The position numbers were made by a program, and so were the translations under genes. 64,000 nucleotides of DNA from Mycobacteriales bacterium. Its GTDB lineage: Bacteria; Actinomycetota; Actinomycetes; Mycobacteriales; QHCA01. The stretch spans positions 87,454 through 151,453 of the forward strand of contig JBBPZR010000002.1 in the NCBI GenBank assembly GCA_038276285.1, in the 5' to 3' direction. This document shows positions 10,513 to 55,057 of this stretch, one piece after another (the stretch's first letter is position 1; each line of letters starts with the position of its first letter). The notes under the pieces were generated by a model. That model had not been told where the DNA came from, did no database searches, and saw only the letters and a program-made list of their open reading frames with translations.

Positions 10513-12008
10513 ACCGTCGACTCCTCCTGCTGGTCCGGCTCGGATTCGGGAAGATCCGCAATCGGTGGGACGGCGTCGTCGGCCTCGCGGCGCGCCCGGG
10601 TGGCCGCCTCAGCGGCCGGGGTGCCCGGCCGTCGGCGTTCGACCCAGCCGTCGATGTTGCGCTGCTCGCCGCGCGAGACGGCCATCGCACCGGGCGGCAC
10701 GTCGTTGATGATCACCGTGCCGGCCGCTGTGTAGGCGCCGTCGCCGACGCTGACCGGTGCCACGAACATATTGTCCGCCCCGGTGCGGGCATGTGCGCCG
10801 ATGACACTTCGATGTTTGGCAACTCCGTCGTAATTGACGAAGACGCTGGACGCCCCGATGTTGGTGCCCTCGCCGATGGAGGCATCGCCGACGTAGGTCA
10901 GGTGCGGCACCTTGGCGTCCTCACCGAGGTCGGCGTTCTTCACCTCGACGAAGGTGCCGACCTTGGCACGCGGCCCGATGCGGGCGCCGGGCCGCAGGTA
11001 GGCGTACGGACCGACGGTGGCGTACGCAGCGATCTCGGCGCCCTCGCAGTGCGCCCGAACCACCCGCGCGCCCTCGCCGACGGTGGTGTGCAGGAGGGTG
11101 CAGTCGGGGCCGATCTCTGCGCCGCCGGCCACCCGGGTGCGGCCCAACAGCTGGGTGGAGGGATGAATGACGGCGTCGCGCTCGACGTGGACGCCGACGT
11201 CGGCCCACGTGGTCTCGGGGTCGACGATCGTGACACCGTCGCGCATCCACCGCAGCAGCAGGCGATCTCGCAGCCGGCGTCGCGCCGCGGCCAGTTGCAC
11301 CCGATCGTTGACGCCCTCGGTCTCGCCGGCATCCGGTGCCGTGAACGCCCCGACCGCGTAGCCCTCGCCCACCAGCACACCGATGACGTCGGGCAGATAC
11401 TCCTCGCCCTGCACGTTGTTGGTGCCGATCCGGTCGAGTGCCGTCCGCAGCAACGCGGCTTCGAACGCATAGACGCTGGTGCCGACCTCGGTGACATCGA
11501 GTTCTGCCGGAATGGCGTCACGATGCTCCACCACCCGGGTGACCGCACCGCTGCTGTCTCTGATCACTCGGCCGTAGCCCTCCGGATTGGTCGGCACCGC
11601 GGTCAGTAGCGTGGCGGCATCCTCCTCGCCGACATGGTGCTCGACGAGTGCGGCCAGCAACTCCGTGGTGAGCAGGGGCGCGTCACCCGGCAGGACCAAG
11701 ATGGTGCCGTCGGCGTCCGGAAGTGCTTGCAGGGCAAGGCGTACGGCATGGCCGGTGCCATTCTGCTCGGCCTGCACCACGGCCAACGCGTCCGGTGCTT
11801 CGGTGCGGAGTACGTCGATGACCCGCTCACGGCCGAAGCCGACGACGACGACCGTGCGAGCCGCTTTGAGGGGCTCCGCAGCGGCGAGCACATGCCCGAG
11901 CAGGGTGCGTCCGCAGATCTCGTGGAGGACCTTGGGAGTGCTCGAGCGCATCCGGATGCCCTCGCCAGCGGCGAGGACGACGACCGCTGCGGGGCGGGCG
12001 TCCGACAA
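10509..12008 (-). CDS. glmU: Bifunctional UDP-N-acetylglucosamine pyrophosphorylase / glucosamine-1-phosphate N-acetyltransferase
   Basis: 499 aa with [13 protein letters not shown] (the LAAGxGTRM-type motif) and C-terminal hexapeptide repeats. It overlaps prs by 4 nt. Confidence 0.95.
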
Positions 12009-12122
12009 GGAAGCTCCCCTCAGGCGCGGCGTGCTCTGTCACGACAATAGCGGTGGGGACACCCGCCGCTACCCGAGACGCCGCAATCCAGACCGTCGGA
12101 GGAGTCGAACCGTGCTCTTGAG

Positions 12123-12193
12123 CTCCCAGGGGAGGACTCGGACCCCCACCTCTGACACCAAAAGCCAGCGTGCTGCCGTTACACCACCCGGGA
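12123..12193 (-). tRNA. tRNA-Gln (anticodon UUG) with an unusual T-loop
   Basis: I folded the cloverleaf by hand. The acceptor is TCCCGGG/CCTGGGA (U1-A72, one G-U pair). The D arm is GTGT-AACGGCA-GCAC. The anticodon arm is CTGGC-TTTTGGT-GTCAG. The T arm is GGGGG-TCCGAGT-CCTCC. The T-loop has C where U55 is nearly invariant. No CCA is encoded. Confidence 0.7.
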
Positions 12194-12227
12194 CCACAGT
12201 CATTGGGCCGACTGTGACTTGAGGAGT

Positions 12228-12641
12228 CTAGACCGGACGCCTGAGCCGGGCACCGCGCACAACGCCCTGCCACGCACCCGCCGTGCGTTGATACAGCATC
12301 CGCGATTGCAGGACCCTCACGGTGAGGCATCCGTGATAGTCGTCCGACATCCACTGCCGGTTGGTCCGAGGATTGTGGCGCTTGATCGTCGTCTTCATGA
12401 AGGTGCCCTGGTGCCCAACGACACCGTGCCAGAACGCTTCGGCGTCAGCCACGTCAGCAGTCTCGTGGATCGCGACGTGGAATCGCAGGGAGCCGCGAGG
12501 CACCCGCAGTCCCTCGAGCCATCGGAGGTAATCCGTGATCTCGGTGGGGTCGCTGTTGGCGAAGGTGAGCTTCTCGGCCCGGCGATAGGGCTTGTCCTTG
12601 GTGCCCTCGGCCCAATACAGCGCGGCGCCGATCAGGGAGAA
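12228..12641 (-). pseudogene. Possible 5'-truncated LAGLIDADG-like endonuclease-family ORF
   Basis: The frame is open from just after a TAG at 12642-12644 and reads LWFSLIGAALYWAEGTKDKPYRRAEKLTFANSDPTEITDYLRWLEGL... The track calls only the last 91 aa, from a GTG at 12503. The YWAEGTK motif resembles LAGLIDADG-type motifs. No Met precedes it, and the inverted-repeat element abuts the 5' side. Confidence 0.35.
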
Positions 12642-12652
12642 CCATAACTATC

Positions 12653-12730
12653 GCCGACGATCAAGGAGTTGACGTCGACACAATCGGACAAACGGGTACG
12701 AAATTCGACGCAAACTCCTTGATCGTCGGC
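12653..12730. repeat. Inverted-repeat element, copy A (18-bp perfect arms, 42-nt spacer)
   Basis: The arms are GCCGACGATCAAGGAGTT (12653-12670) and AACTCCTTGATCGTCGGC (12713-12730). The arms and parts of the spacer match copy B at 31344-31409. Confidence 0.8.
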
Positions 12731-12784
12731 AATAGGAGGGTCTGGGCACGGACGTCGCGCACGTCACGGCCCTTTCGCCTGGCT

Positions 12785-12817
12785 GGTTACGGTTGCGTAG
12801 GTTACGCTTGCGTAACC
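12785..12817. promoter_or_regulatory. Operator-like repeat and palindrome upstream of the desaturase gene
   Basis: GGTTACGGTTGCGTA is followed by GGTTACGCTTGCGTAACC. The second unit is an 8+8 palindrome (GGTTACGC TT GCGTAACC). It lies about 55 bp upstream of the desaturase start, and a TetR gene is co-oriented downstream. Confidence 0.45.
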
Positions 12818-12823
12818 AGGCAT

Positions 12824-12857
12824 CACGACCGCCAGAGATCCACGACCGCCAGAGATC
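12824..12857. repeat. Perfect 17-bp tandem duplication in the desaturase 5' leader
   Basis: CACGACCGCCAGAGATC occurs twice back to back (12824-12840 and 12841-12857). The second copy ends 12 nt before the ATG at 12870. Confidence 0.85.
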
Positions 12858-12869
12858 GAGGACGAATCC

Positions 12870-13841
12870 ATGACCGCACCCGCGAACACCGCGCTGCTGG
12901 ACTCACCGCCGCCGGCCAAGGTCGGCAAGAAGCCGCTCACCGATGAGGTCAAGTCGGGCTGGGAGCAGATCGCGCTGTACGCCTTCGTGATCATCCCGTT
13001 CCTGGCCGTCCTCGCCGCCGCGCCGGTGGCCTGGGGATGGGGGCTCGGCTGGCACGACGTCGTGATCACCCTCGCGTTCTATATCGTCTCGGGCCTGGGT
13101 ATCACCGTCGGCTTCCACCGCTACTTCACGCACGGCTCCTTCAAGGCCAAGCGCGGACTGCGCATCGCCCTGGCGCTGGCCGGCACGATGGCCATCGAGG
13201 GGCCGGTGATCCGCTGGGTGGCCGACCACCGAAGGCACCACGCCTTCAGTGACAAGGAGGGCGACCCGCACTCGCCCTGGCGCTACGGCACCAGCATCCG
13301 CGCGCTGGCCAAGGGCTTCTGCTACGCCCACCTCGGCTGGCTCTTCGACATCGAGCAGACCAACCAGGAGCGCTTCGCGCCGGACCTGCTCGCCGACAAG
13401 GACCTCCAGAAGATCGACCGGGCGTTCCCGTGGATCGTGGCGTTCAGCCTGCTCGGACCGGCCGTCGTCGGAGGCGTGTGGTCGATGTCGTGGACAGGTG
13501 CCCTCACCGCGTACTTCTGGGCCAGCCTCGTGCGGATCGCGGTTCTGCACCACGTCACCTGGTCGATCAATTCTGTCTGCCACACCATCGGCGAGCGGCC
13601 CTTCGTAGCCAGGGATCAGTCGCGTAACTTCTGGCCGCTGGCGATCATCAGCTTCGGTGAGTCCTGGCACAATCTGCACCATGCCGACCCCACGTCCGCA
13701 CGCCACGGCGTCCTGCCCGGACAACTCGACCCCTCGGCGCGGGTGATCCGATGGTTCGAGCAGGCCGGCTGGGCATCAGAAGCACGCTGGCCGTCGCGCG
13801 AGCGGATCGAGAGCAAGCTTGTGGCCAGCGACAGTCGGTGA
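12870..13841 (+). CDS. Membrane acyl-CoA/acyl-lipid fatty acid desaturase (DesA3-like)
   Basis: 323 aa with three His boxes (HRYFTH, HRRHH, HNLHH) and TM segments. Confidence 0.92.
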   Translation: MTAPANTALLDSPPPAKVGKKPLTDEVKSGWEQIALYAFVIIPFLAVLAAAPVAWGWGLGWHDVVITLAFYIVSGLGITVGFHRYFTHGSFKAKRGLRIALALAGTMAIEGPVIRWVADHRRHHAFSDKEGDPHSPWRYGTSIRALAKGFCYAHLGWLFDIEQTNQERFAPDLLADKDLQKIDRAFPWIVAFSLLGPAVVGGVWSMSWTGALTAYFWASLVRIAVLHHVTWSINSVCHTIGERPFVARDQSRNFWPLAIISFGESWHNLHHADPTSARHGVLPGQLDPSARVIRWFEQAGWASEARWPSRERIESKLVASDSR

Positions 13842-18604: not shown

Positions 18605-18764
18605 GATCCAGGGAAGATTTGGCCGGTTCCAGCCGGACTAACTCTCCATGGATCATGGAAGGGCGGCAGGCTGGGTTCGCGACCCCCGTCCGGCTGGCAC
18701 CCTCCTTTGATGATCCAGGGAACGCTGGGCCGGTTCCAGCCGGACCAACTCTCCCTGGATCATG
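18605..18764. repeat. Two copies of a 53-bp hairpin-forming repeat
   Basis: Copy 1 (18605-18657) is GATCCAGGGAAGATTTGGCCGGTTCCAGCCGGACTAACTCTCCATGGATCATG. Copy 2 (18712-18764) is GATCCAGGGAACGCTGGGCCGGTTCCAGCCGGACCAACTCTCCCTGGATCATG. Each ends in inverted termini GATCCAGGGA / TCCCTGGATC. Confidence 0.8.
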
Positions 18765-18810
18765 CTTCGCCGCAGACTTCAGGTGCCAGCCGCACGACAC
18801 CGAGCCGGCA

Positions 18811-19674
18811 TCAGCCGGGTGCCGCTGTCTGCGCAGCCAACGCGGCGGCGATGCGTACGAACGCTTGCACATCGAGGACCTCTCCCCGCGCACCAGGAAG
18901 GACACCCGCCGCACCTAGCACCTGCTCGGCGCGAGCCGGGGAACCGGCCAGGCCGGCGAGGGCCGATCGGAGTGTCTTGCGGCGCTGCGAGAACGCGGCG
19001 TCCACCGCCGCGAACACCGCCTCGCGCGGCGCGCCGACCGGCGCCGGCCGCCGCGTCAGCAACACCAGCCCCGATTCCACATTGGGCTCGGGCCAGAACA
19101 CCTTGCGGCTGACGGTCCCGGCCCGGCTCACTTCCGCGTACCAGGCGGCCTTCACCGACGGCACTCCGTAGACCCGCGACCCCGGTGGTGCCGCGAGCCG
19201 CTCGGCGACCTCGGCTTGCACCATGACAAGGACGCGCCGCAGGGTCGGCAAGAGCTCCAGCAGATGCAGCAACACCGGCACCGCGACGTTGTAGGGGAGG
19301 TTGGCGACCAGCACGGTGGGCGGCGGCCCGGGAAGAGAGGTCAGCCGCAGCGCGTCGCCGATGACAACGCGCAGCCGGTCGCCGTACGCCGGCAGGCGAC
19401 TCTCTACTGTGGACGGCAACTGGGCCGCGAGCACCGGATCGATCTCGACCGCCACGACCTCGCGGCAGGCGGACAGCAGTCCGAGCGTCAGCGAACCGAG
19501 GCCCGGCCCCACCTCCACGACCACGTCGTCTGATGACAACGCGGCCAGGCGGACGATCCGGCGGATGGTGTTGGCATCGTGCAGGAAGTTCTGGCCGAGT
19601 GCCTTGGTCGGCTTCAGGGCCAGCTTGGCGGCAAGCGCACGCAGGTCAGCGGGCCCGAGCAGCCCATCGGTCAC
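18811..19674 (-). CDS. rsmA: 16S rRNA (adenine1518/1519-N6)-dimethyltransferase
   Basis: I trimmed the start to the GTG at 19674 ([31 protein letters not shown]), which overlaps the rpfB stop as GTGA. The SAM motif is [12 protein letters not shown]. Confidence 0.92.
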
Positions 19675-20765
19675 GTGAAGAGGTTGCGACCGCAGACCGG
19701 CCACTGACCGGCCCCGGAACGCCTGTACAACAGTTGGGCCCGGTAGGTCTGTTCGGCCGGTGCCGCATCGGTGGGCAGCCCGACCCCACCCACTCCGCGC
19801 CACGTGCTGGCGCTGAACTGGTAGAGCCCGTAATAGGGCCCCGCGGCGTTGTAGGCCTTCGGGTTGCCGCCCGACTCACACCTCGCCAGCGCCGCCCAGT
19901 TGAGCCCGTCGGGTGACGGGTTGTGGGCCGGCGCCGGCCGCGTGCCGAAGGCCAGGATCCTGGGCCGCGGATGGCTCCGGATGACCGACGACAGCAACCG
20001 CTTGGCGGTCACCTTTCCGTCCGTGATCGTGTACGCAAATGTCTGTACGACAACCCCCGGCGCGCCCGGATCGAGCACCTTCGTCTGGCCCACCGTCATG
20101 CTCGCGTCAGGCTTGCGGATCACCGGTTGGGGCACCGCGACGCTCACCACGCCGACGGTCCCGCGGATCCGGGTCACCGCGACCACCAGGCCGTCGGTCA
20201 CAGATTGGTCGTACGGAACCGTCATCTTGTCCGTCGGGCCGAGCGTGACGTGGGCGAGCTCGAGCAGTTGGCGCACAGTGGGTGCCGTGGTGGTGAGCAC
20301 CGTGGCCCGGCGGTCGGCAACCACGGTCGCCTCCTTCGGCACCCGCATCCGCAGGGCGAGCCCGCCGAGCGGGATCGGCCGTGACCGCGAGGCCGACAGC
20401 CAGACGCCGGCGTCGCGCAGCCCGACCTGCTCGAGCAGCTCGCCGACCGAGCGCGCGGTGACCCACAGGTGCCTGGGCTGCCCGTCGACGTAGATGGTGA
20501 CGGGCCGGGCCCGGCGAAGCACGACGTACGACCCGTTCTGCACGGAGACGTCGCGATCCGGGGCCAGCAGATCGTGCCGGCCCACGGCGAGGCCGGCCGA
20601 GGCCAACACTCCCTCAACGGTGCGCGCGTGGGTGCTGACCGGCACCGACGCGCCGTCGAGCAGGACGATCACCCGCTTGTCGGAGGACGCCCAGACGGCG
20701 GCGGCGCCAACCAGCGAAGCCAGCAGGAGGGTCTTCAGGACGATCGCGGTAAGGCGATGGCGCAC
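19671..20765 (-). CDS. rpfB: Resuscitation-promoting factor RpfB-like (DUF348 repeats, G5 domain, Rpf transglycosylase domain)
   Basis: I trimmed the start to the GTG at 20765, which is preceded by GGGAG ([24 protein letters not shown] signal/anchor). The C-terminus reads [18 protein letters not shown]...[11 protein letters not shown]. The upstream 315 codons of the 679-aa track ORF are antisense to the ABC ATPase gene. Confidence 0.9.
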
Positions 20766-30472: not shown

Positions 30473-31297
30473 TCAAGCTGGGCCGAAGACCCGCTCGGCG
30501 GTCGCCGTCACCGCTCGGCACAGGTCGTCGACCGCGACCTCTTTGAGCGCGGCCAGATACCGCAGCGTGATTGGCACCAGGTGGGGGGCGTTGGGCCGCC
30601 CCCGGTAGGGCATCGGCGTCAGGAACGGCGCATCGGTCTCCACGAGCAGGAGCTCGATCGGCGCCACCTGCGCCGCCTCCTGCAGCGCGGTCGCGTTCTT
30701 GAAGGTCACGTTGCCCGCGAAGCTCACGACATAGCCGTGCTCGGCACAGGCGCGCGCCATGCCGGCGTCACCGGAGAAGCAGTGGAAGACCACGTGCTCC
30801 GGTGCGCCCTCCTCGGCCAGGATCCGGAGCACGTCGTCGTGCGCCTCCCGGTCGTGGATCATCAACGCGCGGCCGGTGCGCTTGGCGATGTCGATGTGCG
30901 CGCGGAACGACGCCTGCTGCGCGGGCTGGTCGTCGGGCCCGGTGCGGTAGTAGTCCAGACCGGTCTCCCCCACCGCTCGCACCTGGGGCAGTTGGGCCAG
31001 CCGCTCGATCTCGGCAAGCGCCGCCTCGTCGGCGTGATGAGGCGCTTCGTTGGGATGGATGGCCACACCGGCCTGGATTTCGTCGTACTCCGCGGCGACG
31101 TCGGCACACCATCGCGACGTGGCGACGTCGACGCCGATGGTGAGCATGCGCGTGATGCCCACGGCGCGGGCCTGCGCGATGGCCTCCTCGATCGGAGTGT
31201 CCATCAGGTCGAGATGGCAGTGCGAGTCGAGGGCGGGTACGGCGAGTGGCTCGGGAAGCGGCGGCGGGCGTGGTGGGCGTGGTGGCTCGCGGCTCAT
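30473..31297 (-). CDS. tatD: TatD family metal-dependent hydrolase
   Basis: 274 aa with the DSHCHLD metal-binding motif, and positioned downstream of metG as expected. Confidence 0.9.
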   Translation of the reverse strand: MSREPPRPPRPPPLPEPLAVPALDSHCHLDLMDTPIEEAIAQARAVGITRMLTIGVDVATSRWCADVAAEYDEIQAGVAIHPNEAPHHADEAALAEIERLAQLPQVRAVGETGLDYYRTGPDDQPAQQASFRAHIDIAKRTGRALMIHDREAHDDVLRILAEEGAPEHVVFHCFSGDAGMARACAEHGYVVSFAGNVTFKNATALQEAAQVAPIELLLVETDAPFLTPMPYRGRPNAPHLVPITLRYLAALKEVAVDDLCRAVTATAERVFGPA

Positions 31298-31343
31298 GCT
31301 GTCACGCGAGCCCGGACGCTCACCGCACGCCCCCCATCGCGGT

Positions 31344-31409
31344 GATCAAGGACTTCACGGCTGACAAAACGGACTTTTCGGGGCCGAAATCGACGTGAAG
31401 TCCTTGATC
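31344..31409. repeat. Inverted-repeat element, copy B (16-bp perfect arms, 34-nt spacer)
   Basis: The arms are GATCAAGGACTTCACG (31344-31359) and CGTGAAGTCCTTGATC (31394-31409). The core GATCAAGGAsTT...AAsTCCTTGATCGTCG and spacer blocks (GACAAAACGG, GAAATCGACG) are shared with copy A. Confidence 0.8.
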
Positions 31410-31503
31410 GTCGCGGAAGGGGTCGCGGAAGGGGTCGCGGAAGGGGTCGCGGAAGGGGTCGCGGAAGGGGTCGCGGAAGGGGTCGCGGAAGGGTCGCGGA
31501 AGG
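31410..31503. repeat. 12-bp tandem array (about 8 units of GTCGCGGAAGGG)
   Basis: The array lies directly in the metG-tatD intergenic region. It starts at the right flank of IR copy B and ends 6 nt from the metG stop codon. One unit has a 1-nt deletion. Confidence 0.9.
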
Positions 31504-31509
31504 CGCGGG

Positions 31510-33312
31510 TCACGCAGACCCCTCCAGGCGGGCCAACTCTTCGTCGACGATCGAGGGATCGAGCTTGGTGAACACCGGCGTGGGTGCCGCCAACGGTGTA
31601 CCGGCCTTGATCGGCACGGACTCCCAGCGGGCGCCCGTGTCGTACTCCCCGGTGAGTACGGAGTACCCCGGCGAGCCGACCGCCGTCTCCTCGGGCACCT
31701 CGACGAGCTCCGGCAACGCCGCCCAGATGCCAGCGCCGCCCAGCGCCTCGTGCACCTGCTGCGCGGAGTGCGGCAGGAACGGCGTGAGCAGGGTCTTGCA
31801 GTCATCGACGGCCTGCAGGGCCACGTGCAGCACGGTGTTCATCCGGGCCGGGTCGTCGTTCTTGAGCTTCCACGGCGCCTGGTCGGAGAGGTACTTGTTG
31901 GCCTCGGCGACCGTCTTCATGGCCTCGGCGATCCCCGCCTTCTGCCGCGATCGGCCCAACAGCTCTCCGACGGTGCCAAAGGCGGCCTGGGTGGTGGCGA
32001 GGAGTTCGTGGTCGGCCGGCGCGAGCTCCCCGGGATCGGGGATCGCGCCGACGTTCTTGGCGGCCATCGACACGGTCCGGTTGACCAGGTTGCCCCAGCC
32101 GGCGACCAACTCGTCGTTGTTGCGGCGGAGGAACTCCTCCCAGGTGAAGTTGACGTCCGAGGTCTCCGGCCCCGCCGCCGCCAGGTAGTAGCGCAGCGCG
32201 TCGGGGTCGTACCGGCTCAGGAAGTCCCGGACCAGCACGCCGATGCCCCGGGACGAGGAGAACTTGCGCGCCTCGACGGTGAGGTACTCGCTCGACACCA
32301 CCTCGTTGGGCAACTGGAGAGCCCCGAGCGAGCCGGCCCGCCCGCCGCGATCGCCGCCGCCGGAGTAGCCGAGCAGCAGCGCCGGCCAGATCTCGGCGTG
32401 GAAGACGATGTTGTCCTTGCCCATGAAGTAGTAGGACTCGCAGTCCTCGCCCTGCCACCACGCGCGCCAGGCCTCCGGGTCGCCGCTGCGCCGGGCCCAC
32501 TCCACCGACGCCGAGAGGTAGCCGATCACCGCGTCGAACCACACGTAGAGCCGTTTGTCGGACCGGTCCCGCCAGCCGTCGAGCGGCACCGGCACGCCCC
32601 AGTCGAGGTCGCGGGTGATCGCCCGAGGCTTGAGGTCGCCGAGCAGGTTCATCGAGAACCGCAGGACGTTGGGCCGCCAGTTCTGCCGGGTCTGCAGCCA
32701 GGCGCCCAGCGTCTCGGTGAAGGCCGGCAGGTCGAGGAAGTAGTGCTCGGTCTCGATGAACTTGGGGGCCTCGCCGTTGATCCGCGACCGCGGCTTGATC
32801 AGGTCGGTGGGATCGAGTTGGTTGCCGCAGTTGTCGCACTGATCACCACGGGCGCCGTCGTAGCCGCAGATCGGGCAGGTGCCCTCGATGTAGCGGTCGG
32901 GCAGCGTACGCCCGGTCGACGGCGAGATCGCGCCCATGGTGGTCTTGGGGAAGACGTACCCGTTGCCCAGCAGGCCCAGGAAGAGGTCCTGCACGACGGC
33001 GTAGTGGTTGCCGGTGGTCGTGCGGGTGAAGAGGTCGTAGGACAGGCCCAGCGCGCGCAGGTCTTCGGCGATCACCCGGTTGTAGCGGTCGGCGAGCTCC
33101 CGGGGGCTGGCGCCTTCCTGGTCGGCGGCGACCAGGATCGGGGTGCCGTGCTCGTCGGTACCGCTGACCATGAGTACGCGGTTGCCGGCCAGCCGCTGGT
33201 AGCGGCTGAAGACATCTGACGGCACGCCGAACCCCGCGACGTGGCCAATGTGCCGCGGGCCGCTGGCATAGGGCCAGGCGACGGCGGTGAGCACGTGTCG
33301 AGGGGCGGGCAT
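31510..33312 (-). CDS. metG: Methionine--tRNA ligase
   Basis: I trimmed the start to the ATG at 33312 ([27 protein letters not shown], the HIGH motif). It also has the zinc knuckle [18 protein letters not shown] and a KFSSS (KMSKS-type) motif. The upstream 116 codons of the track ORF are non-coding. Confidence 0.95.
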
Positions 33313-54710: not shown

Positions 54711-54829
54711 GGCCTGCTCGAACTCGCCGGCGTACTCCGACACGGCCACCAACCCGAAGCCGGGCAAGCCCGTCAACACCAGCATCGCCGTCGCCGCAGT
54801 AACGTCAACACGCACCTGGGACCTCCACA

Positions 54830-54860
54830 GATCAAGGACTTCGACACCCCTGATCGTGAG
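54830..54860. repeat. Possible collapsed third copy of the GATCAAGGA inverted-repeat element
   Basis: GATCAAGGACTTCGACACCCCTGATCGTGAG shares the left arm (GATCAAGGACTTC) and the right end (CTGATCGT) with copy B but lacks the spacer. Confidence 0.3.
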
Positions 54861-55057
54861 GTCCCAGGCCAATTTCCGGGCTCAGGCTGGAAGTCGTGTC
54901 GCGGCCCGGTCACCACGCTTCGCTGAGAAGAGCCAATCATGCCGACGTCGGCACAATAGGGCTTATGCCGACTCGGCGCGGATCAGCTGCGGGGTAAAGG
55001 GGTATCCCGCCCGCCGAAGTCGAGCAAGTCTAGTACTGTCAGAACTGCAGCCTATGG

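Follow-up and report, generated by a model that had tools for sequence, protein, structure and literature searches.

For the most part, high-GC actinobacteria do without canonical U-tract terminators, and the way in which their transcripts end remains a matter of debate. The closest described analogue of the repeats considered here is TRIT ("Tuberculosis Rho-independent terminator") of Mycobacterium, which is present in 147 copies in M. tuberculosis and for which a double-strand-binding factor is suspected (Gardner et al. 2011, PMC3152330). TRITs are reported to be restricted to Mycobacterium and to be centered at approximately -8 relative to the stop codon, overlapping the coding end (PMC3152330). 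Term-seq revealed little overlap between TRITs and mapped 3' ends (bioRxiv 10.1101/2022.06.01.494293), and hairpins without a U-tract failed to terminate mycobacterial RNA polymerase in vitro (PMC3993855). A REP measures 20-40 bp, with a stem of 5-13 bp and, at its head, an unpaired GTAG or CGTC (Di Nocera et al. 2013, PMC3733652); a survey of tagged REPs did not report any from Actinobacteria (PMC3733652).

We analyzed a 64-kb stretch of DNA (the window) that carries two copies of a palindromic repeat. The reading we favor, and judge probable but well short of certain, is a GATC-bounded, palindromic, non-autonomous repeat of REP/MITE-like character, functioning as a two-way hairpin at transcript ends. 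An earlier note on this DNA had proposed a MITE/REP-like mobile or recombinogenic element, a proposal strengthened by the number of copies and genomes, the subfamilies, differences in presence and absence, a MITE in the MAG JBJMIH01, and a truncation breakpoint. Like TRITs, these repeats are actinobacterial, multi-copy, conserved palindromic hairpins that are bidirectional, lie at gene 3' ends, and lack a canonical U-tract. The two differ in placement: the narrow TRIT position near -8 is not observed here, the hairpin lying at a median of 38 nt downstream of the stop codon (interquartile range 19-70). This comparison is by description, the TRIT consensus being published as a figure; TRIT was not among the Rfam matches.

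Two hairpins in a 64-kb window

Copies A and B (Table 1) are look-alike hairpins that lie at the places where the earlier note had put them, both in intergenic DNA as it had stated. Their arms follow the consensus GATCAAGGA[G/C]TT / AA[C/G]TCCTTGATC and form near-perfect hairpins, far above chance expectation. The perfect terminal arms and the spacer lengths that had been described were recovered upon measurement, with perfect arms of 16 nt in each copy and spacers of 42 nt in copy A and 34 nt in copy B. The full palindrome of copy A, a member of the long-loop subfamily, has 31-nt arms (12648-12678 and 12705-12735) with 90% complementarity, an outer pairing of CTATCGCCGAC with GTCGGCAATAG, and the termini CTA...TAG; the outer pairing of copy B is weaker and reaches 31328-31425. 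Spacer blocks said to be shared between the copies are indeed present, as the two loops align in the same orientation and have GACA.AA.CGGAC and GAAAT(T)CGACG in common.

Table 1. Coordinates of the hairpins and adjoining features in the window
Feature	Position	Strand	Description
Copy A	12648..12735		Extended palindrome; conserved arms GATCAAGGAGTT (12659-12670) and AACTCCTTGATC (12713-12724)
Copy A, perfect 16-nt arms	12655-12670 and 12713-12728		CGACGATCAAGGAGTT and AACTCCTTGATCGTCG; spacer 42 nt
Copy B	31335..31421 (approximate)		Arms GATCAAGGACTTCACG (31344-31359) and CGTGAAGTCCTTGATC (31394-31409); spacer 34 nt
Tandem array	31410..31503		7.9 copies of the 12-nt unit GTCGCGGAAGGG; abuts copy B
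HTH-domain gene remnant	12228..12647	minus	5'-truncated; aligns to residues 106-239 of 240-aa homologs; GC3 coding signal
Partial hairpin	54815..54868		Perfect 11-bp outer stem CCTGGGACCTC / GAGGTCCCAGG enclosing GATCAAGGACTTCGACACCCCTGATC
Distant candidate hairpin	18707..18766		GATC-bounded GATCCAGGGAA...TCCCTGGATC; R1 13.2 bits, E = 0.12

As RNA, copy A folds at -50.8 / -56.3 kcal/mol (z -10 / -12) and the copy B hairpin at approximately -40 kcal/mol (z -6.2 / -7.6); on either strand, the fold z of the hairpins relative to shuffled sequence ranges from -6.2 to -12.2. A covariance model built from the family alignment (R1) assigned 60.1 bits to copy A (E = 1.6e-15) and 49.8 bits to copy B (E = 1.9e-12), and its scan of the 64-kb window returned nothing significant beyond these two. 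With up to one mismatch, the core 12-mer GATCAAGGASTT occurs seven times in the window versus 0.16 expected, a count reached in 0 of 100 shuffles. These values bear on the simplest alternative, that the hairpins are chance palindromes or ordinary, unrelated terminator hairpins. The abundance of hairpins in GC-rich genomes is all that speaks for this reading; it is refuted, and retains virtually no probability, given the excess of core matches, model E-values of 1e-12 to 1e-15, and at least 116 further loci elsewhere. Copy A is also not an assembly artifact, since window positions 11975-13135, which include this copy, are matched at 100% identity by a 1.16-kb contig that was assembled independently (Logan).

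Two weaker candidates were retrieved from the window. The earlier note had suspected a collapsed third copy at 54830-54860, and part of this suggestion stands: the exact arm GATCAAGGACTT (12-mer) is present at 54830-54855, and the GATCAAGGACTTCGACACCCCTGATC enclosed by the surrounding hairpin amounts to one intact family arm plus the terminal GATC. The fold is stable (z approximately -6), but R1 gives just 8.6 bits, and with E = 2.9 membership in the family is not demonstrated. At best, this hairpin is a decayed or internally deleted half-copy or remnant. The second candidate, 44 nt past the stop of a minus-strand gene called at 18810-19875, is a possible distant member of the superfamily; the match is marginal and could be due to chance.

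The spacer occupied by copy B runs from the metG stop at 31510 to the tatD start at 31297, both genes being on the minus strand. A transcript running from metG to tatD would therefore contain, in order, the metG stop, (CCCTTCCGCGAC)x8, the copy B hairpin, 47 nt, and the tatD ATG. The tandem array that had been reported to flank copy B begins directly at its right end and fills the gap from the metG stop to the hairpin; on the transcribed minus strand it reads (CCCTTCCGCGAC)n, with 58% C and 17% G. Short tandem arrays lie near half of the 126 copies, which makes the one at copy B characteristic of the family and not peculiar to this locus. The DNA of the window derives from an uncultured lineage of actinobacteria. 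Its TatD has one 100% match (P0001) and otherwise at most 80% identity to anything on record, and the nearest matches that carry a name are MAGs labeled Actinomycetota, Pseudonocardiales, and Mycobacteriales. The database protein P0001 begins 31 codons after the annotated tatD start, which leaves the true start and the spacer length uncertain. A further short tandem repeat, GGGCGTGGT x2.2 at 31266-31285, lies at the annotated start and encodes a peptide repeat of the PPRPP type.

Copy A sits in a divergent, promoter-side context that is atypical for the family, with a minus-strand gene remnant next to a tRNA-Gln gene on one side and the promoter side of a desaturase/TetR gene pair on the other. 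The adjoining ORF had been thought to be 5'-truncated, and comparison with its 240-aa homologs confirms this: approximately 100 N-terminal residues are missing. Homology of the remnant sets in at a distance of 12 nt from copy A's outer edge; the edge of the repeat thus coincides with the breakpoint of a deletion or rearrangement. Two side observations concern the same region. Positions 12122-12647 contain the tRNA-Gln gene (minus) followed by the HTH_23-type remnant, whose full-length homologs are approximately 235 aa and mostly from Streptomyces; its site beside the tRNA gene and its truncation point to an integrated element that has decayed. Immediately ahead of the desaturase gene (12870-13841), whose downstream neighbor is the TetR-family gene, lie a 20-nt inverted repeat (TGGCTGGTTACGGTTGCGTA / TACGCTTGCGTAACCAGGCA, 12780-12822) and two exact tandem copies of CACGACCGCCAGAGATC (12824-12857). 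These repeats are probably the operator region of the desaturase/TetR pair, unrelated to the hairpin family.

A GATC-bounded family in Micromonospora and related lineages

Representative bacterial genomes were scanned with the pattern GATCAAGGASTT-N25-55-AASTCCTTGATC, in which perfect arms were required. The earlier note had let its proposal hinge on whether more than two copies exist, with conservation elsewhere; the scan retrieved at least 116 loci in other genomes, mostly in Micromonospora, with at least 6-14 loci per genome among the matches listed. Other matches listed were to Micromonosporaceae MAGs, the "Mycobacteriales" MAG JBJMIH01, the "Actinomycetota" MAG CAVVPI01, and one Frankiaceae MAG. 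The superfamily is one of Micromonospora, other Micromonosporaceae, and related uncultured Actinomycetota, including the lineage of the window. One locus (L054) is on a 2.9-kb contig, JBPYFQ010000224.1, labeled as a Solirubrobacteraceae MAG. The flanks of its hairpin are approximately 78-79% identical in DNA to those of the Micromonospora locus L015, so this contig is, from its sequence, probably mis-binned, and an occurrence of the family in Thermoleophilia is doubtful.

The family, which the earlier note had not recognized as a described one, is apparently undescribed: it had no match in Rfam, and searches of open-access text by sequence and by keyword returned no description of the motif. 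Its kind, that of dispersed intergenic palindromic repeats, is already known. Against Rfam 15, two tRNAs alone passed the gathering threshold in the window; the best sub-threshold matches for the element were unrelated miRNA precursors, at 26-28 bits versus thresholds of 74-99.

Elements are 55-90 bp in length, end in GATC, and have stems of 18-24 bp or longer, with 25-55 nt between the arms. The trinucleotide outside the arms is paired (GTC/GAC, GTT/AAC, GGT/ACC, or CAC/GTG), and inside the arms the stem continues for another 6-8 bp whose sequence differs by copy while complementarity is kept. The loop is variable, although GATC or TCGATCTCC is frequent within it. The folding and covariation analyses that had been suggested returned stable hairpins on both strands and stem changes that are compensated across copies. 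In an alignment of 82 copies, 89.8% of stem cells were paired, versus 79% in shuffled controls and 29-43% when the partner column was slid, and 223 stem cells had changed on both sides. The identity of the 12-nt arms themselves documents recurrence and not independent conservation, because the search pattern fixed 11 of the 12 positions; all Micromonospora loci were chosen for perfect arms, which biases statements on arm conservation. Outside this selection, the orthologous hairpins L065:5217 and L013:7226 have three arm differences, each mirrored on the opposite arm.

When applied to the fetched loci, R1 recovered sister subfamilies with other arms and the same GATC ends (GATCATGAGGTTG, GATCATGAAGTTGGCGGC, GATCTTGGAGTTGTGG, GATCTTGCACTTTGTGCCC, and others), and one spacer often holds two to four hairpins. 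Three further observations were made in these loci. Another palindrome family, with 32-nt arms GATCTTGGTACGAAACGGCCCC...GGGGCCGTTTCGTACCAAGATC, occurs in spacers that also contain GATCAAGGAGTT hairpins (L085:2070-2137 and approximately L009:300-360). The loop motif CGATCTCCCC of L060:5605-5659 is replaced by its reverse complement, GGGGAGATCG, in the orthologous L110:3618-3672, a difference that points to flipping of the loop, or of the element as a whole, between symmetric arms. The tetranucleotide CTAG is strongly under-represented, with observed/expected ratios of 0.65 in the window and 0.39 in the Micromonospora-rich loci L001-L116.

The subfamilies are informative as to whether the repeats are host protein-binding sites. 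In that case a conserved factor that binds DNA or dsRNA as a dimer, such as a nucleoid protein or a factor for termination or processing, would recognize each inverted 12-bp arm as a half-site, and selection, not mobility, would account for the maintenance of the repeats. TRIT provides a precedent (PMC3152330), and across Micromonospora species the hairpins are kept at orthologous positions while loops and flanks diverge. The presence of the same 12-nt arm in all pattern-selected copies, from several genera and MAGs, also agrees with a binding site, but this invariance is in part ascertainment, given that the arms were required by a pattern that fixed 11 of 12 positions, and the L065/L013 pair does show arm changes. 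Moreover, at equivalent or even orthologous sites one finds sister subfamilies whose arms differ considerably (ATGAGGTTG, TTGCACTTTG, ATGGAAGTTTG, and others), no single recognition sequence is conserved beyond GATC, and arm spacing varies over 25-55 nt. On balance, we regard a binding site as an unlikely explanation of the family.

Position, flanking composition, and transcript ends

Gene context was assigned with a simple, crude GC3-based gene filter. Of the copies, 98 could be classified: convergent genes flank 54 of them, tandem (co-directional) genes 37, and divergent genes 7, versus 93, 240, and 111, respectively, for the remaining gene pairs of the same loci. This corresponds to an enrichment of copies in convergent spacers (odds ratio 4.6, p = 7e-11) and a depletion from divergent ones (odds ratio 0.23, p = 4e-5). 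Base composition around the hairpins is likewise ordered, with approximately 50-60% C on the left and 50-55% G on the right over at least 30 nt. Short tandem arrays occur within 100 bp of 63 of the 126 family copies and, where inspected, are C-rich on the left-hand side and G-rich on the right-hand side. In several MAGs, 19-20-nt units comprising arm and flank are tandemly repeated on both sides of the hairpin and thereby produce nested hairpins. Outside JBJMIH01, similarity between copies ends approximately 3-12 nt from the arms.

Judged from such sequence features, the hairpins probably mark transcript ends. No terminator-like site of the canonical intrinsic type (GC-rich hairpin plus U-tract) was found at copy A or copy B, and right flanks in the family are G-rich. 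A strong hairpin preceded by a C-rich, G-poor tract is what one would expect of a Rho-dependent terminator and also of a barrier to 3' exonucleases. Rho-dependent terminators, in which a C>G rut tract is followed by a pause hairpin (as in RhoTermPredict), have the same order of parts as the repeats, here from either direction; they differ in being a functional architecture and not a sequence family, and the likeness in our case is one of sequence layout.

Whether the palindrome is maintained as RNA or as DNA bears on the alternative offered by the earlier note, structured small RNAs. In a broader form, the repeats would be small RNAs or cis-regulatory hairpins under selection at the RNA level, for instance sequestering the AAGGAG of the arm, which we take to be Shine-Dalgarno-like. 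Very stable predicted RNA hairpins and stem covariation are what such a model would produce. Mismatches, however, point elsewhere: in copies oriented with transcription in co-directional contexts, 28 are G-U and 29 are A-C, and because the two are equally common, palindromy is a property of the DNA and not one selected in RNA. Covariance-model scores are equal on both strands, without strand bias, and no promoter-like site was found at copy A or copy B, so the proposal of small RNAs is not supported. In addition, most copies lie past stop codons between convergent genes rather than in 5' leaders, sister subfamilies lack AAGGAG, and no Rfam family reached its threshold, the matches being generic miRNA-hairpin noise alone. 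We consider selection at the RNA level very improbable. Instead, we infer that arm symmetry is kept by recent copying or by arm-to-arm correction at the DNA level. DNA-level palindromy is compatible with a function of the transcribed hairpin, because both strands are transcribed between convergent genes.

The repeats encode nothing, form genome-specific subfamilies, and in the course of evolution have been acquired by intergenic spacers, lost from them, or exchanged for one another. Transcription from either side would yield an mRNA in which the stop codon is followed by a C-rich, G-poor tract and then by a very stable hairpin, and the resulting layout, a rut site plus a pause hairpin, would serve as a Rho-dependent terminator or a 3'-exonuclease barrier. 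Position and composition thus suggest a portable two-way transcript-end module. At copy B, the hairpin and its (CCCTTCCGCGAC)x8 tract may cause metG transcripts to be attenuated or terminated before tatD; copy A, atypically placed upstream of the desaturase gene, would mark a deletion breakpoint.

Turnover, mobility, and significance

Orthologous metG-tatD spacers from other genomes illustrate turnover at a single site. In L117, the spacer is 34 bp and contains no family repeat, just a small CCCCTTC...GAAGGGG hairpin, and in L121, L122, and L125 there is overlap, or almost no gap, between the two genes, with no hairpin in L121. Hairpins of the GATCATGACGTT type are present in L119 and L120, and one of the GATCTTGCACAAATGC type, with C-rich and (GTGGCG)n flanks, in L123. 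The spacer of L126 carries a GATCATGGAAGTTTGCGGG-type hairpin followed by approximately eight units of a G-rich array of approximately 16 nt, which reproduces the layout of copy B. Because its immediate flanks (cgcggt before the first GATC and accgcg after the last) are common to the window and L126, one site can be said to host different subfamilies or none. Additional hairpins are found in L052 and not in L032, and in L085 and not in L020. Within Micromonospora, many copies are shared at orthologous sites by species that are 82-96% identical in the flanking genes, a pattern that fits long-term vertical inheritance or even host function as well as it fits mobility.

For stand-alone hairpins, the spacers compared are too diverged for clean boundaries and yielded no empty site with a target-site duplication; the flanks of these copies are inverted, not direct, repeats. 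In the MAG JBJMIH01, the hairpin is instead the center of a repeat of approximately 190 bp with 16-nt inverted ends, GGCCGTGTCTCRAAGT; similarity extends approximately 60-70 nt on each side of the hairpin and stops at CTAG, CTAA, or TTAG. We take inverted ends together with TA-type flanks to be the signature of an IS630- or IS5-type MITE. The repeat is found in L019, L034, L040, L057, L066, L093, L097, L100, L106, and L107. Within it, the hairpin is flanked on either side by an internal repeat, GGTCCGAAATCCGCCA, which is in inverted orientation in L106 and L107.

This composite invites the view that the hairpin itself is immobile, either a passenger or internal module of IS630-/IS5-type MITEs with decayed ends or the product of local, palindrome-generating errors of replication or repair. 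The extent of similarity in JBJMIH01, out to GGCCGTGTCTCRAAGT ends with CTAG/YTAR flanks, the CTA...TAG termini of copy A, and the arm-plus-flank units that are duplicated in tandem to the left and right of many copies are all in keeping with it. Yet a search for GGCCGTGTCTCRAAGT found it in the JBJMIH01 loci only and in neither the window nor the other fetched loci, similarity in other genomes ends within approximately 3-12 nt of the arms, and local generation does not explain identical 12-nt arms at more than 100 unlinked sites. An immobile hairpin accordingly seems to us quite unlikely.

Nested copies and the GATC found in loops prompted us to consider insertion into GATC with duplication of this tetranucleotide. 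We found nothing to support this idea. No stand-alone mini-elements were seen, the palindromes GTCGATCGAC and GTTGATCAAC, which would resemble empty sites, were not among common GATC-centered decamers, and GATC occurs at expectation, neither avoided nor enriched (observed/expected 0.99-1.03 in the window and L001-L116). Tandem duplication of arm-plus-flank units explains the nesting more simply.

Bertels and Rainey (2011) reportedly linked REP and REPIN elements to RAYT transposases. No RAYT was seen near any copy among the ORFs of the 116 loci, and no gene family or transposase recurred among the 619 ORFs called there. Lone arms proved rare when a larger parent element with these arms at its ends was looked for, a scan of viral contigs returned no copy, and plasmid BLAST with copy A gave no match. 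The family otherwise resembles REPs and REPINs as intergenic palindromes of genome-specific types, with several units per spacer, located downstream of genes in convergent or co-directional spacers and persisting vertically over long periods. It departs from the REP format of 20-40 bp with an unpaired GTAG/CGTC head, being 55-90 bp in length with stems of at least 18 bp and GATC ends; in most copies, the (C)GTC ahead of the GATC is paired, its partner being GAC(G).

Likeness to MITEs is similarly partial. Correia/NEMIS-type and other IS630-/IS5-derived MITEs, as well as ERIC/IRU, share with the family non-coding lengths of 60-200 bp, inverted-repeat ends, long hairpins, intergenic location, and effects on transcript ends (inferred for the present repeats), and in JBJMIH01 the hairpin is enclosed by terminal inverted repeats that have TA/CTAG flanks, an arrangement shared with such MITEs. 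Terminal inverted repeats with a direct target-site duplication, which define MITEs, were seen just for the composite of approximately 190 bp, the CTA...TAG of copy A being weak in this respect. In contrast, stand-alone copies have no target-site duplication or recognizable parent IS, their flanks are inverted C-rich and G-rich sequence, and subfamily arms co-vary, which is not required of ordinary terminal inverted repeats.

As non-autonomous repeats, the hairpins would be spread by an enzyme acting in trans. As a tentative extension, which we put forward with more doubt than conviction, the family may constitute a self-maintaining module in which arm-to-arm correction at the DNA level preserves perfect complementarity, C-rich and G-rich microsatellite arrays are seeded at the base of the element, and the resulting portable two-way Rho-type terminators are swapped between subfamilies at a given site. 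On this view, given that no RAYT, target-site duplication, or parent IS was found, mobilization would be by an enzyme class new to repeats of this kind.

On the practical side, these repeats break assemblies and should be masked or annotated in actinobacterial genomes, and their VNTR-like arrays could serve for strain typing. The family is useful for studying the local formation of tandem repeats and deletions, exemplified by the truncated gene beside copy A. It also represents a REP-like system outside Proteobacteria, in which the spread and persistence of palindromes can be followed without an obvious transposase. Finally, the hairpins of cultivable, antibiotic-producing Micromonospora offer test cases for Rho-dependent or factor-assisted termination and for the protection of mRNA 3' ends.
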